From assembly GCA_038858525.1 (NCBI GenBank), contig JAWCFL010000009.1, positions 19,937 through 51,936 of the forward strand: 32,000 nucleotides of DNA, written 5' to 3'. Source of the DNA: Candidatus Jordarchaeales archaeon (GTDB lineage Archaea > Asgardarchaeota > Jordiarchaeia > Jordiarchaeales > Freyrarchaeaceae). A program made the position numbers and the translations under genes. This document shows positions 27,961-32,000 of this stretch, in pieces (the first letter of the stretch is position 1; every line of letters starts with the position of its first letter). Under the pieces are notes generated by a model. The model had not been told where the DNA came from. It searched no databases and saw only the letters and a program-made list of their open reading frames with translations.

Positions 27961-29316
27961 CTACCATGCCTCATAATTTAATCCCCTGTCTTGTAACTCC
28001 TTCTTCATCCTGGAGTAGAGTTCCAGGTATTCTTTTCCTGGCTTAAGGGTTTTCATGTCGTACTTCTCCAGTATGAGAGTCTCGCTGGGGAGGCTAACCT
28101 TCACTTTTCCCTCGTATTTTGCGAGCAGCTCCTTCACTATTTCGACGCCGTCGCTTGTCTTGATGCCCGCTGCGGCCCTCGCCACTTCCCCGCCCCATCT
28201 TCCCTCTATTCCCGGCACGCCTCCCGTAAGCCACATTCCCTCCATGCCAGAGATGGTGTTAGTTATGACCGTGGCAGCGATAGCGTAGAAGGACACGTCG
28301 GTCGCCTGCTGCCCCGTAACCCCACCACCATAACTTATCCATGGAACCCTTATGTTCCTCTCTGCGGCGAGTGCTTGGGCGGAGTTAGCCCAGAAAACGT
28401 CTCTTCCCTCGTATCTTCCCTCGACCGTCGCGCTCATGGCTTGGGCAAAGGAGCCGCCGGAGTACGCCATCATTCCGAGAACATGAGCGATGCCCTCAAC
28501 AGCAGCCTCCTCTGGGCCTCCTATGTAGGCGTACATGGTGGGACAACTGCTGATCCATGGGTTTATACCGTTCTGCTGGGCGAAGAATGCTAGGTTAAGC
28601 CTGTCATAGTCGATCCTCATGTCCTGTATAATGTGAACTGGGCACATGCAGTTGTGCCTCGTGTAACCTGCAGGGTGAAATGAGCCCATCACAGCCTTGG
28701 CGCTTGACACGCTCATGGGAATCCCTAGATACATGCCGGGTCTGCCTACACGGACTGCCGCCTCCCTGAGAATGAATCCCTCAGTTAGCCCTAGGAGGGT
28801 TTCGCTGGGAGTCTCGCTCGTCGGCTTCAAGTCACCTATGCCCTGAAGCGGTAAAGCTATAAGTCCGTCAGCGACAGGCTCCTTAGCTGCTGAGAGCACG
28901 TATGCCTTGTAAAGCTCAATGTTGCTGGTCAGAATTCCGGCGGGCAGAAAGGTCCTCGGCGGATCTCTGTCCTCCGGCTTCCTGAGCCTCAAAGCGATCT
29001 GGTCTCTTCCCTCCCCCAAGACCAGCTCCCTCTTCCTCGTGGCGAGGACCTCCTTGATCTCCTCCTCCGTGAACTTCACTATTCTCTTCGTGTCCTTATT
29101 ATACAGGCCAACTTCCAGCAGGAGCTCGAGTCCAGCCTCGAAGATCTCGTCAGCCATACTGGCGTCGGTCATGACGACCTCTTCCGGATCGTATTTTATC
29201 CCGTGCTCCCTCACGATTTCCTTTATTTTTGACGGGAAAAACTCGGTTTCAAACTCCTCCTCCTTCATGAGAGGACCTGTCTGAGACCTTTCCAAAACCT
29301 CCCACAGCAACGACAC
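27961..29316 (-). CDS. Monomethylamine methyltransferase (MtmB) family MT1, pyrrolysine-free
   Basis: Colinear with MtmB: GLELLLEVGLYNKDTKRIVKFTEEEI, LGEGRD, GRPGM, GGPEE, GEVARAAAG and YDMKTLKP. The Pyl-equivalent codon is GGG (Gly). Confidence 0.9.
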   Translation of the reverse strand: MSLLWEVLERSQTGPLMKEEEFETEFFPSKIKEIVREHGIKYDPEEVVMTDASMADEIFEAGLELLLEVGLYNKDTKRIVKFTEEEIKEVLATRKRELVLGEGRDQIALRLRKPEDRDPPRTFLPAGILTSNIELYKAYVLSAAKEPVADGLIALPLQGIGDLKPTSETPSETLLGLTEGFILREAAVRVGRPGMYLGIPMSVSSAKAVMGSFHPAGYTRHNCMCPVHIIQDMRIDYDRLNLAFFAQQNGINPWISSCPTMYAYIGGPEEAAVEGIAHVLGMMAYSGGSFAQAMSATVEGRYEGRDVFWANSAQALAAERNIRVPWISYGGGVTGQQATDVSFYAIAATVITNTISGMEGMWLTGGVPGIEGRWGGEVARAAAGIKTSDGVEIVKELLAKYEGKVKVSLPSETLILEKYDMKTLKPGKEYLELYSRMKKELQDRGLNYEAW

Positions 29317-29490
29317 GTTAACCCCTCCGATCTCTTCAAATAAGAGAATTCAAAAATATATATGTGTTTTCTTAAGGGGAGTTAATGCCACGAGAACGAA
29401 TTTGCTCCGATTTTAGTCATAGAAACTTCTTCTGAGAAAAACTTTTTAGTGAGAAGAGCCGCAATTTTTTCTTTGCGGTTGGATGGGAGG
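29317..29490. promoter_or_regulatory. Divergent promoter region of module B
   Basis: TA-repeat TATA-like element (29352-29363), palindrome TCTCTT-N5-AAGAGA (29331-29347) and hairpin CCGCAA-N8-TTGCGG (29459-29478). Confidence 0.55.
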
Positions 29491-31176
29491 ATGGTGGGCT
29501 TGTCGACGTGGGATGTTGAAGTGGATGTTGTGGTTGTCGGTAGCGGTGCTGGCGCTCTGACCGCAGCCATAGTTGCTCATGACAAAGGAGCTAAAGTCAT
29601 CGTCCTCGAGAAGACGGACAAGGCTGGAGGAGCAAGTGCTGTCTCTGGGGGAGCTGTCTGGGTGCCAAACAACAGGTTCATCAGGGAGGGGTTCCAGCCC
29701 GAATTTTGGGATCCCGACAGAGGAGAATGGGTTAAGGCTCCCGACTCCGAGGATAAAGCCTTCAAGTACATGAAGGCGATAGCCGCTGGCAGGTCTAGTG
29801 ATGAGCTGATAAGAACGTATCTCAGAACGGTAAGTGAGGCTTGTGACTACTTGGAGAAGAACACGCACGTTAAGTGGTCGCACGTGAAGCTGATGCCGGA
29901 CTACTTCCCCGAGTGGGAGGGCGGAGTAAAGGGTGGCAGGGTCATGGAGGCGCAGCTCATAAGCTTCAACTCTCTACCCAAAGAGGTGGCTGAGCGAGTG
30001 AGGCTCTCCCCGGTCAGCCTCCCCATACTGCTCGAGGAACTGGTCGAGTGGGGCGGGCTGGCGACCATGATGAGCGGCAGGTGGGACTTCAACCTTATAA
30101 ACGAAAGGCTGAAGGAAAGGTTCTACGGGTGGGGGACAGCGCTCATAGCTCGCCTACTGTACTCCTGCTACGAGAGGGGCATCGACATCAGGTATAATAC
30201 TCCAGCTAAGAGGCTCATCGTTGAGGGGGGCAGAGTTGTCGGAGTGGTGGCGGGGCACGAGGGAAAGGAGCTTAGAATACGCGCTAGGAAAGGCGTGATC
30301 CTAGCGACCGGCGGCTTCGAGTGGCATGAGAAAATGCCTTCAGCCTTTCTGAGGGGGCCGATGAGGGGGCCCATGTCCCCGCCGCACAACACCGGCGACG
30401 GGCACCGTATGGCGATGGAGGTCGGAGCACAGGTCGACTTGATGTGTGAAGCGTGGTGGTTCCCAACGGTTTACACAGGCGACTCCTACGATGGTAAACC
30501 ATACTATAGGGGCATATTCTTCGAGAAAGTTCTACCTGGAGTCATAATAGTCAACAAGTATGGGAAGCGGTTCGCTAATGAGGGAGCGAATTACTTTGAC
30601 TTCACGAGGGCGATGCACACCTGGGACCCGAATAGGCATGAGTATCCGAATATTCCGGCGTGGATGATTTTCGATGAGCGCGTGCACCAGAGTTACACGA
30701 TATTCACTCTTTATCCGGGAGCTGAGCCTACTGATCCACCGTTCAAGTGGGCTGACACGCTAAGAGACCTAGCAAGGAAGGCTGGAATAGACCCAGATGG
30801 GCTCGAAGAGACTGTTGAGAGGTTCAACAGGTATGCTAAGGAGGGCGTCGACCCGGACTTCCACCGTGGGGAGAGCTACTTTGACAGGTTTTATGGGGAT
30901 CCGAACTGGAAGCCTAACCCAACCCTCGGACCGCTGGAGAAGCCGCCATTCTACGCCATCGAAGTATACCCGGGATGCCTAGGCTCGTGTGGCGGCTTAA
31001 AGATAAACGAGAAGGCGCAGGTTCTCGACTACAATGACAAGCCTATACCCGGACTGTACGCGGCTGGCAACGTCACAGCGGCAGTGTCAGGGGGAGGATA
31101 CCCGAGCAGCGGCATAACTATAGGCGCGGGTATATGCTTCGGCTACATAGCGGCGAACGAGGTCACAAAAAAGTGA
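29491..31176 (+). CDS. FAD_binding_2 flavoprotein of the 3-ketosteroid delta1-dehydrogenase (KstD) type
   Basis: VVVVGSGAG, GGASAVSGGAVWVPNN, LATGGFE, NTGDG, EAWWFP, RFANE, GLYAAGN and YPSSGITIG; Tyr seen in PDY, NEGANY and GYP. Start ATG 29491 or TTG 29500. Confidence 0.8.
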   Translation: MVGLSTWDVEVDVVVVGSGAGALTAAIVAHDKGAKVIVLEKTDKAGGASAVSGGAVWVPNNRFIREGFQPEFWDPDRGEWVKAPDSEDKAFKYMKAIAAGRSSDELIRTYLRTVSEACDYLEKNTHVKWSHVKLMPDYFPEWEGGVKGGRVMEAQLISFNSLPKEVAERVRLSPVSLPILLEELVEWGGLATMMSGRWDFNLINERLKERFYGWGTALIARLLYSCYERGIDIRYNTPAKRLIVEGGRVVGVVAGHEGKELRIRARKGVILATGGFEWHEKMPSAFLRGPMRGPMSPPHNTGDGHRMAMEVGAQVDLMCEAWWFPTVYTGDSYDGKPYYRGIFFEKVLPGVIIVNKYGKRFANEGANYFDFTRAMHTWDPNRHEYPNIPAWMIFDERVHQSYTIFTLYPGAEPTDPPFKWADTLRDLARKAGIDPDGLEETVERFNRYAKEGVDPDFHRGESYFDRFYGDPNWKPNPTLGPLEKPPFYAIEVYPGCLGSCGGLKINEKAQVLDYNDKPIPGLYAAGNVTAAVSGGGYPSSGITIGAGICFGYIAANEVTKK

Positions 31177-31214
31177 AAAACGCGCGATGAAGCGTTTCTA
31201 GTGGGGGTGGTTTT

Positions 31215-31847
31215 TTGGTTGATGTTTCAGACCTCAGGAAGGCGATAGCCGAGATAAGAGAGGACGCGGAGGAGGTGACGAAGAAGCTTCTGGATGGGGG
31301 GGTAGACCCCGTAAAGATAATTGAGGAGGGAGTGGTCAAGGGGCTCTACGACTTGGGCGGAAAGTTCGAGAAGAGGCAGGCATTCATCCCAGACTTGGTT
31401 AAGGGAAGCAAGATCGCTAGGAAATGCATTGAGTTAATTGAAAGTGTTCTGCCGAAGGAGAAGGCTGGAGCCAAGAAAAAGGTTGTAATAGGAACGCTCC
31501 TCAGCAAGCATAACATTGGGAAGAACCTCGTGAGCACCTTTCTCACCATCAACGGCTTCGAGGTATACGATTTAGGGGAAAACCTTGAGCCTTGGGCGTT
31601 CTACGAGAAAGCTGAAGAGGTCGGGGCAGACCTTATAGCGGTCTCGATAGTCTTCACTCCCGCCCTAACAAAGTTTGAGGAGCTGATCAGGATACTTAAA
31701 GAGATGGGTGTCCGCGACAAGTACAAGGTGATCGTTGGGGGCGCCGTGACGTCGAAAGAATGGGCTGAGAGCGTGGGAGCTGACGGCTGGGCGCCGGACG
31801 TGGAGGGAGCAGTTAGGCTGGCGAAGGAATTGCTTGGAGTAAGCTAG
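31215..31847 (+). CDS. Corrinoid (B12-binding) protein with a variant His-ligand motif
   Basis: Cap domain ([16 protein letters not shown]...FIPDL), [14 protein letters not shown] and KVIVGGA...GADGWA; RBS GGGGGTGG. Confidence 0.88.
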
Positions 31848-31858
31848 GAGCCGAAAAC

Positions 31859-32000
31859 ATGCTTCTCCGCTTCAAATCCCAACAGAAAATATTCAGGATA
31901 GCCGGCGTCAAAGTCGGCGGACAGCCAGGCGAAAACCCGACGGTGCTCATCGGAACAATATTTCATGAAGGAGACAAAGCAGTGAAGGACCCAATTAAGG
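31859..32000 (+). CDS. mtrH: Second MtrH-family MT2, N-terminal part (runs off the window)
   Basis: Manual translation [47 protein letters not shown], clearly paralogous to 5639-6556. Confidence 0.85.

Follow-up and report, generated by a model that had tools for sequence, protein, structure and literature searches.

What is a gene resembling a 3-ketosteroid dehydrogenase (KstD) doing as the first gene of a corrinoid methyl-transfer operon in an archaeon? The question is raised by one end of a 32,000-nucleotide stretch of contig JAWCFL010000009.1 from a Candidatus Jordarchaeales genome (G000:C9:19937-51936; this whole stretch is called the window here). Four genes are found there, each at the position at which the initial annotation had placed it. 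A corrinoid methyltransferase of the MtmB family (MT1) is transcribed away from a KstD-like flavoprotein, a corrinoid protein and an MtrH-type pterin methyltransferase (MT2), with a divergent promoter-like region between the two arms (Table 1). To our knowledge, only two systems, both bacterial, use corrinoid methyltransferases to break or make a C–C bond on a steroid ring: AbeABC, which demethylates androgens, and EmtAB, which methylates estrogens. The initial annotation had likened the locus to these and had proposed a system for demethylative aromatisation. Our best reading is that desaturation of the substrate enables its C-demethylation and that the methyl group feeds tetrahydromethanopterin (H4MPT). 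We would give this reading a probability of about 40%. It is drawn from gene context and not from membership of the EmtA group: the module, its synteny, the four catalytic KstD positions and an H4MPT pathway are all present, and it is the kinship of MT1 with EmtA that does not hold. MT1 is assigned by its sequence to an uncharacterised clade of MtmB relatives without pyrrolysine (Pyl), for which we use the working name clade X, and not to the EmtA type.

Six Asgard genomes, all of one order, have the four genes together, in two different flanking contexts. MT1 diverging from the KstD-like, corrinoid protein and MtrH genes has the same flanks in two genomes of the same genus (G002 and G003) and other flanks in a third genome (G005) and a Freyarchaeota contig. 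Because the same order recurs in all four, the gene set is not a chance assembly. The module is rare among 400 Asgard genomes (five have it at E ≤ 1e-100, and partial copies turn up with lower scores), and an orthologous KstD-like gene, with 81–93% identity, occurs only in those of the 400 that bear MT1. On metagenome contig L024 two BaiCD-like genes are followed by the KstD-like, corrinoid protein, MtrH and SCP2 genes, one further gene and then MT1. In the Bathyarchaeota metagenome-assembled genome (MAG) OY970340 the KstD-like gene adjoins MT1 at three loci, two of them also with BaiCD-like genes; SCP2 matches lie at one KstD-like/MT1 locus and at one MT1 locus that has no KstD-like gene. The module-linked KstD-like genes form one clade, with a value of 98 in the Shimodaira–Hasegawa-like approximate likelihood ratio test (SH-aLRT), in which the Asgard copies are set against L024 plus Bathyarchaeota, and the order in the MT1 tree is identical. 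Since both trees branch in the same order, the MT1/KstD-like pair is inherited as a unit; since the flavoprotein co-occurs and co-diverges with MT1 across two archaeal phyla, it is not an incidental neighbour. The pairing that the initial annotation saw in a single genome is thus kept, with parallel branching, across archaeal phyla.

Among 301 sampled genomes of the Bathyarchaeia class, clade X was found only in the MAG already known (1 of 301). In this MAG (OY970340.1) the clade X MT1 is present in at least 6–8 copies, and there are five KstD-like loci. Among the MT1 copies two are split (L063 and L066), and stop codons interrupt one KstD-like locus (L099-L102). The copies represent a lineage-specific expansion with decay.

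The best NCBIfam match of the flavoprotein is the 3-ketosteroid delta-1-dehydrogenase model PRK12844, with 474.5 bits against an equivalog cut-off of 789; the model of 4-oxocyclohexanecarboxylate 2-dehydrogenase, ChcC1, gives 451.4 bits against a cut-off of 1000. The protein aligns over its full length with AcmB, a delta-1-dehydrogenase of Sterolibacterium denitrificans (PDB 7P18, E = 2.5e-108). In this alignment Y152, Y382, Y551 and G555 of the flavoprotein fall on Y118, Y363, Y536 and G540 of AcmB, and all four KstD catalytic positions are thereby kept. We take G540 to be the counterpart of the catalytic glycine of KstD1. The three tyrosines are the catalytic ones of AcmB (PMC9736390). The flavoprotein is accordingly a predicted alpha,beta-desaturase of a cyclic ketone; its membership of the KstD family does not establish a steroid as the substrate. 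The module-linked archaeal copies are at most 45% identical to the KstD paralogues of Denitratisoma oestradiolicum. Of 31 genomes from a further Asgard family (f5; e.g. G470:C7:117549-119207 and G013:C1:117014-118675), 20 have a KstD-like gene of about 40% identity and no clade X MT1. These genes branch with the D. oestradiolicum paralogues and not with the module-linked copies.

The MT1 frame is open and has no in-frame stop. A GGG codon (Gly198) stands at the pyrrolysine position of Methanosarcina barkeri MtmB, where six true MtmB genes of the comparison set have an in-frame stop (TAG, at residues 192–195); the description of the enzyme as Pyl-free is thus confirmed. MT1 matches the MtmB structure PDB 1L2Q with E = 2.6e-43 and is 27–30% identical to Pyl-containing MtmB. 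Glycine fills the pyrrolysine column in all 29 clade X rows and in seven of the eight rows of the EmtA group; it is a non-specific feature, because nine of 43 other family members have it as well. In the corrected MT1 tree the enzyme lies within clade X (29 rows, SH-aLRT 100, stem length 0.45), where the Asgard sequences, then L024 with the Bathyarchaeota MAG, and then Dehalococcoidia with Proteobacteria, Myxococcota and Binatia branch in turn, the last of these groups including P0153 of D. oestradiolicum. The clade is widespread in marine and soil bacteria. The true EmtA sits in a separate clade of eight rows (SH-aLRT 100). Clade X and the EmtA-containing group both belong to a 51-row clade (SH-aLRT 99); Pyl-containing MtmB and numerous further non-Pyl relatives fall outside it. 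We defined 30 signature columns, using the 26 clade X rows that are not from Asgard archaea. MT1 keeps 23 of the 30, the sister representative P0162 keeps 11, the true EmtA keeps one and other non-clade rows keep 0–4. The phylogeny with EmtA that the initial annotation had put forward as a check therefore sets the two enzymes apart, and their identity is 32%.

A further non-Pyl MtmB paralogue, 35–38% identical to MT1, occurs in a Freyarchaeia-like genus (genomes G005 and G007 to G010; e.g. L017:7670-9674). It follows a canonical corrinoid protein gene, is 33% identical to EmtA and falls within the heterogeneous EmtA-containing group.

The corrinoid protein carries a distinct ligand motif. In 12 of the 12 corrinoid proteins that adjoin clade X MT1s, GD-x-H-x-x-G is replaced by S-(Q/K/S)-HNIG with a one-residue deletion. 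The others that were checked have GD-x-H-x-x-G and not S-x-HNIG; these include MtmC, the second corrinoid protein of the window, a paralogous Asgard one and the true EmtB. Because the S-x-HNIG motif is specific to the clade X-linked proteins, the clade X MT1 and its carrier are a co-evolved pair of their own, distinct from EmtAB.

The MtrH-type gene runs out of the window and is complete in the contig (L001:5796-6710; PF02007, 279.6 bits). With NCBIfam it scores 292 bits as an MtrH family protein, above the cut-off of 287, and 273 bits with MtgA, below the cut-off of that model. The loci nearest to ours are from Candidatus Jordarchaeum sp. LHC_1308 (same genus) and from Candidatus Jordarchaeum madagascariense and Candidatus Freyarchaeota (same order), and the cluster members bear Jordarchaeales and Freyarchaeota names. 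On these grounds we place the host in the Jordarchaeia/Freyarchaeia group of the Asgard archaea, in line with the archaeal origin first read from the letters. Its genome, 92.7% complete, has a single MtmB-family gene (this MT1), a single KstD-like gene and four genes resembling MtrH. Both CdhC and the H4MPT-specific Mch are encoded, which indicates an H4MPT Wood–Ljungdahl pathway. By gene set, the locus thus has the three components of the Abe type (MT1, corrinoid protein and pterin MT2) in a genome with Wood–Ljungdahl genes. Two RACo-type corrinoid activases are encoded, on contigs C9 and C51.

Related loci in archaea and Dehalococcoidia add BaiCD/FadH-like Fe-S ene-reductases (308–475 bits with the BaiCD model) and SCP2 proteins, and this combination points to enone chemistry on a lipid-like substrate. 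The neighbours of old yellow enzyme (OYE) type were also considered as trimethylamine-dehydrogenase-like; this was rejected, as their NCBIfam matches are to mycofactocin FadH/OYE, BaiCD and bilirubin reductase models. In bacteria the cassette takes the form PterinBD (DUF4346), MT1, corrinoid protein at about 20 loci (L040-L062); in Dehalococcoidia a pterin-domain gene is nearby, mostly on the opposite strand. The archaeal version has MtrH as the pterin partner and the KstD-like gene attached. The PterinBD-DUF4346 gene directly precedes almost all bacterial clade X MT1s and is a candidate for the pterin-side methyltransferase. No MT2 was identified in the proteobacteria that carry AbeA or EmtA homologues by the authors who described Abe (PMC11912376).

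In our preferred reading, C-demethylation enabled by desaturation, the four genes would function as a single unit, taking a methyl group off a hydrophobic cyclic ketone. The KstD-like flavoprotein would desaturate the ketone beside its carbonyl to an enone or cross-conjugated dienone, and from the substrate thus activated the clade X MT1 would move a methyl group onto the corrinoid protein in its Co(I) state. The group would be a quaternary C-methyl para to the carbonyl, so that its loss would aromatise the ring to a phenol. The MtrH-type MT2 would then pass the methyl group to H4MPT and so into the archaeal Wood–Ljungdahl pathway. The substrate class, the position of the methyl group on carbon and the direction of transfer are all inferred. 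The Asgard module has no downstream catabolic genes and is set among housekeeping genes. As the methyl group is its only evident output, the desaturase is best explained as activating the substrate; the order of a 3-oxosteroid 1-dehydrogenase followed by AbeA has been proposed in Phosphitispora (PMC11912376). We favour transfer towards methyl-H4MPT, since moving a methyl group the other way, from methylcobalamin onto a phenolic ring, is endergonic and in Denitratisoma depends on S-adenosylmethionine (SAM) (PMC7448270); here MT2 is a pterin enzyme, in a genome with CdhC and Mch.

Denitratisoma also provides an experimental lead on clade X. In D. oestradiolicum (LR778301.1) two MtmB-family systems lie 13 kb apart, emtABCD (L103:1517-9969) and a clade X cassette (L081:8937-12103). 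NCBI names both MT1s "monomethylamine:corrinoid methyltransferase", which invites confusion. P0153, 46% identical to our MT1, was considered as EmtA and rejected; it starts MSKLLMEA and ends ITWDF, against MIPSIDFQ and GMPYR encoded by the published primers. The true EmtA (L103:3490-4845) is 13 kb downstream of P0153 and runs from MIPTIDFQ to GMPYR. Genes for a canonical corrinoid protein and an F420-type oxidoreductase come before it and SHMT and MetH after it, as published for emtABCD. The published emtA forward primer had no match in the genome contigs searched, in which Denitratisoma sp. DHT3 was sought. The clade X cassette consists of PterinBD-DUF4346, MT1 (P0153) and a corrinoid protein with the motif S-Q-HNIG. 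We identify these with DENOEST_v1_1153, 1155 and 1156, because the cassette lies between a TonB receptor (1148) and a B12 transporter (1159) and its PterinBD gene has a thymidylate-synthase-like Pfam match. Table S3 of Jacoby et al. labels the three "thymidylate synthase", "PurM" and "cobalamin-binding protein", and their log2 changes on estradiol relative to acetate are 18.4, 23.2 and 4.1 (Tables S2/S3; PMC7448270). The clade X cassette is thus co-induced with EmtABCD on estradiol. It is located between a KstD-like gene, 6.8 kb away, and emtABCD.

A number of points weigh against our reading. Clade X has no member of demonstrated activity, and its join to the EmtA-containing group is weak (SH-aLRT 86); with an identity of 32% and one of 30 signature columns, the chemistry of EmtA is not transferable to MT1 by homology. 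The analogy with EmtAB and AbeABC is therefore one of neighbouring clades and gene context only, since MT1 is outside the EmtA clade. AbeA is also unplaced, as the tree was built without AbeA1-4 of Phosphitispora sp. TUW77. Name searches and cluster look-ups did not find these, nor did a search for homologues that started from P0162 or a search of 401 genomes sampled from the phylum of a Desulfotomaculaceae MAG, chosen as the likely home of Phosphitispora. AbeA may well belong to the EmtA group rather than to clade X, as it is reported to be about 40% identical to EmtA (PMC11912376). The flavoprotein reaches none of the NCBIfam equivalog cut-offs, and its match to a model of a monocyclic cyclohexanone desaturase is almost as good as that to KstD. 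When Pfam families were counted in 126 open reading frames (ORFs) around 13 bacterial clade X cassettes, those of steroid catabolism were not enriched; MMPL (four ORFs), luciferase-like (three) and SAM synthetase (two) came up most often. No KstD-like gene was found within 10 kb of bacterial clade X cassettes, except in D. oestradiolicum, and in that organism a dienone demethylase would oppose EmtAB. Lastly, the source habitats, hot-spring and hydrothermal sediments, are no obvious sources of steroids.

The alternative that survives best, although we regard it as rather unlikely, is that MT1 strips a hydrophobic cyclic compound of a methyl group bound to O, N or S while the KstD-like enzyme, and elsewhere the BaiCD-like ones, act on the same skeleton to another end, for example interconverting ketone, enone and phenol forms of the product. 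All other characterised MtmB-family enzymes have N-methyl substrates (MtmB itself and the non-Pyl MtqB, which acts on tetramethylammonium and choline; PMC13044021), and the wide distribution of clade X in marine and soil bacteria without neighbouring steroid genes fits such a role, as does the nearly equal match of the flavoprotein to the monocyclic model. Releasing a methyl group of this kind takes no flavin desaturase. The desaturase gene nonetheless opens a module devoid of downstream catabolic genes, and its divergence parallels that of MT1. MtqB, moreover, is reported to be close to Pyl-containing MtmB, which is itself far from clade X in the tree. As for O-methyl groups, no O-demethylase is known in the MtmB family. 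The bathyarchaeial O-demethylase that the initial annotation had named as the competing explanation fails on family, its MtgB being unrelated.

Distinctly less probable is EmtAB-like chemistry in reverse of our scheme, in which the methyl group of methyl-H4MPT would pass through MtrH to the corrinoid protein and MT1 would turn a para-substituted phenol into a cyclohexadienone by C-methylation. This product would then be reduced by ene-reductases and by the KstD-like enzyme acting in reverse, giving a dearomatisation driven by methylation. EmtAB does this with estrogens, AcmB-type KstDs catalyse 1,2-hydrogenation with a low-potential donor (PMC9736390), and BaiCD-like reductases accompany MT1 in L024, the Bathyarchaeota MAG and Dehalococcoidia. 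It also agrees with the finding that, in D. oestradiolicum, growth on estradiol induces the clade X genes and EmtAB alike. Against this, methyl-pterin is a weaker donor for the endergonic methylation of a phenol, which is SAM-driven in Denitratisoma. There are also no ene-reductase or ring-cleavage genes beside the Asgard module; the one BaiCD/FadH-like flavoenzyme in the host genome lies elsewhere, away from it.

Ordinary methylotrophy on methylamines or quaternary amines, with the flavoprotein an unrelated neighbour, agrees with the automatic annotation of all homologues ("monomethylamine:corrinoid methyltransferase"), with the methyl transfer from methylated amines that Sun et al. 2021 describe in Jordarchaeia (PMC9723677) and with the second, MttB-type corrinoid module in the window, yet we consider it very improbable given the absence of pyrrolysine (Gly in 29 of 29 clade X rows, TAG in true MtmB genes), the 27–30% identity to Pyl-containing MtmB and the co-occurrence and co-divergence of the flavoprotein with MT1 across two archaeal phyla.

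Table 1. Features of the module at the end of the window (positions are those of the window)
Feature	Position	Strand	Remarks
MT1, pyrrolysine-free MtmB-family corrinoid methyltransferase, clade X	27961-29316	minus	451 aa; Pfam MtmB PF05369, 211.9 bits
Divergent intergenic region with two A/T-rich TATA-like boxes and GGAGG	29317-29490	none	read from sequence
KstD-family FAD flavoprotein	29449-31176	plus	575 aa from GTG 29449; probably 561 aa from ATG 29491; FAD_binding_2, 272 bits
Cognate corrinoid protein, ligand motif S-K-HNIG	31215-31847	plus	210 aa; B12-binding and B12-binding_2 domains
MtrH-type MT2, 5′ end (methyl-corrinoid:tetrahydromethanopterin/pterin methyltransferase)	31859-32000	plus	ORF leaves the window; full gene 304 aa

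The spacer between MT1 and the flavoprotein gene is 132 nt, or 174 nt with the ATG as start. This ATG, behind GGAGG, is probably the true start. The TATA-like boxes lie at about 29354-29366 and 29439-29450 and may act as promoters; the spacer blocks ATATAT and AAAACTTTTT are kept in G002 and G003. The gaps within the rightward arm are short, 38 nt from the KstD-like to the corrinoid protein gene and 11 nt from there to MtrH. The genes 3′ of MtrH in the contig are unrelated (a PALP enzyme, an ACT-domain protein and a peptidase), and the upstream side of MT1 is occupied by lipoate-assembly genes. Directly upstream of MT1, at 23171-27929, are two radical-SAM genes, a lipoate-protein ligase fused to a Cys-rich DUF116 and a flavoprotein of the geranylgeranyl reductase family. 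This is a putative lipoate cluster of LipS1/LipS2 type, and its Pfam domains were confirmed.

The second corrinoid module occupies positions 2-6565 of the window. It comprises a RACo-type activase (2-1435, minus strand, truncated where the window begins), an MttB-family MT1 (1629-3143), a corrinoid protein whose motif is canonical (3140-3832), a thermosome subunit (3867-5585) and a further MtrH (5639-6565, minus strand). The activase could also serve the KstD-like module.

Published descriptions of Jordarchaeia and Freyarchaeia, Sun et al. 2021 among them (PMC9723677), report methylamine-type methyltransferases and MtrH, but neither this module nor its KstD-like partner. Full-text literature searches for Asgard with 3-ketosteroid and for Abe or estrogenesis in archaea gave nothing relevant. 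What the locus adds to the EmtAB and AbeABC systems is a neighbouring, uncharacterised MT1 clade with its own variant corrinoid protein, which in archaea forms one inherited unit with a KstD-type desaturase. If our reading is correct, the range of anaerobic demethylative aromatisation would come to include Asgard archaea and Bathyarchaeia, a new source of methyl groups would be added to those of acetogenic or methylotrophic metabolism in archaea, and the estradiol-induced Denitratisoma genes now carried under unrelated names would be assigned a function. A wider proposal, which we regard as doubtful, is that clade X and a KstD-like enzyme constitute an unrecognised B12 system in Asgard archaea, some Bathyarchaeia and Dehalococcoidia. 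This system would harvest angular C-methyl groups from cyclic ketones of steroid or terpenoid type with aromatisation of the ring and deliver them to H4MPT or tetrahydrofolate, and DENOEST_v1_1153-1156 would be its bacterial pterin-linked counterpart. Such a harvest of angular methyl groups would provide an enzymatic basis for the anaerobic ring-A aromatisation of steroids and triterpenoids in sediments. Should the chemistry prove to be different, clade X would still be a widespread family of B12 enzymes with an unusual cobalt-ligand motif and a substrate to be found.

How, then, does the Asgard module compare with known systems? The literature on which the initial annotation drew was found to be as described: EmtA is a Pyl-free relative of MtmB, and AbeABC and a 3-oxosteroid 1-dehydrogenase bring about androgen C19 demethylation. 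Like the module, AbeABC of Phosphitispora sp. TUW77 (PMC11912376) is a set of MT1, corrinoid protein and MT2, with a Pyl-free MtmB relative, AbeA, as its MT1. AbeABC passes the methyl group to a pterin and the Wood–Ljungdahl pathway (the genes of which are also in the Asgard genome), and a 3-oxosteroid 1-dehydrogenase is proposed as its prior step. The module differs in that the TUW77 dehydrogenase gene is outside the abe cluster, whereas the Asgard KstD-like gene is the first of the operon; its MT2 is of MtrH type, its predicted carrier H4MPT and its host an Asgard archaeon. With EmtAB(CD), the estrogen C10 methyltransferase of Denitratisoma (10.1101/714501; PMC7448270), it has in common the MtmB family, the glycine at the pyrrolysine column, a corrinoid partner and the 51-row superclade. 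Identity and signature columns separate EmtA from MT1, as described above, and the ligand motif is GDLHTIG in EmtB and S-K-HNIG in the Asgard protein. The emt cluster, moreover, has an F420-type oxidoreductase, SHMT and MetH as neighbours and uses SAM.

The likeness to DENOEST_v1_1153/1155/1156 lies in an MT1 of the same clade, an S-x-HNIG corrinoid protein (53% identity), an adjacent pterin-type partner, a nearby KstD-like gene and estradiol induction. There the pterin partner is PterinBD-DUF4346 and not MtrH, and the KstD-like gene, 36% identical, is outside the operon. MtmB/MtmC/MtbA of methanogens (PDB 1L2Q/1NTH) and the non-Pyl MtqB (PMC13044021) resemble the module in Pfam family, length and possession of a cognate corrinoid protein; the Asgard MT1 lacks pyrrolysine and is remote in sequence, MtrH takes the place of the coenzyme M methyltransferase, and there is a flavoprotein partner. 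Bathyarchaeial MtgB/MtgC/MtgA is different in kind, since MtgB has about 300 aa and no homology to known MT1s (PMC10989822), against the 451 aa of the MtmB-family Asgard enzyme. The flavoprotein in turn is like AcmB/KstD (PDB 7P18, 4C3X) and the ChcC1-type desaturases in its end-to-end alignment with AcmB and in the retained Tyr/Tyr/Tyr/Gly set. It differs from them in its score, 474 bits against the cut-off of 789, and in that the module-linked archaeal copies are a clade of their own.

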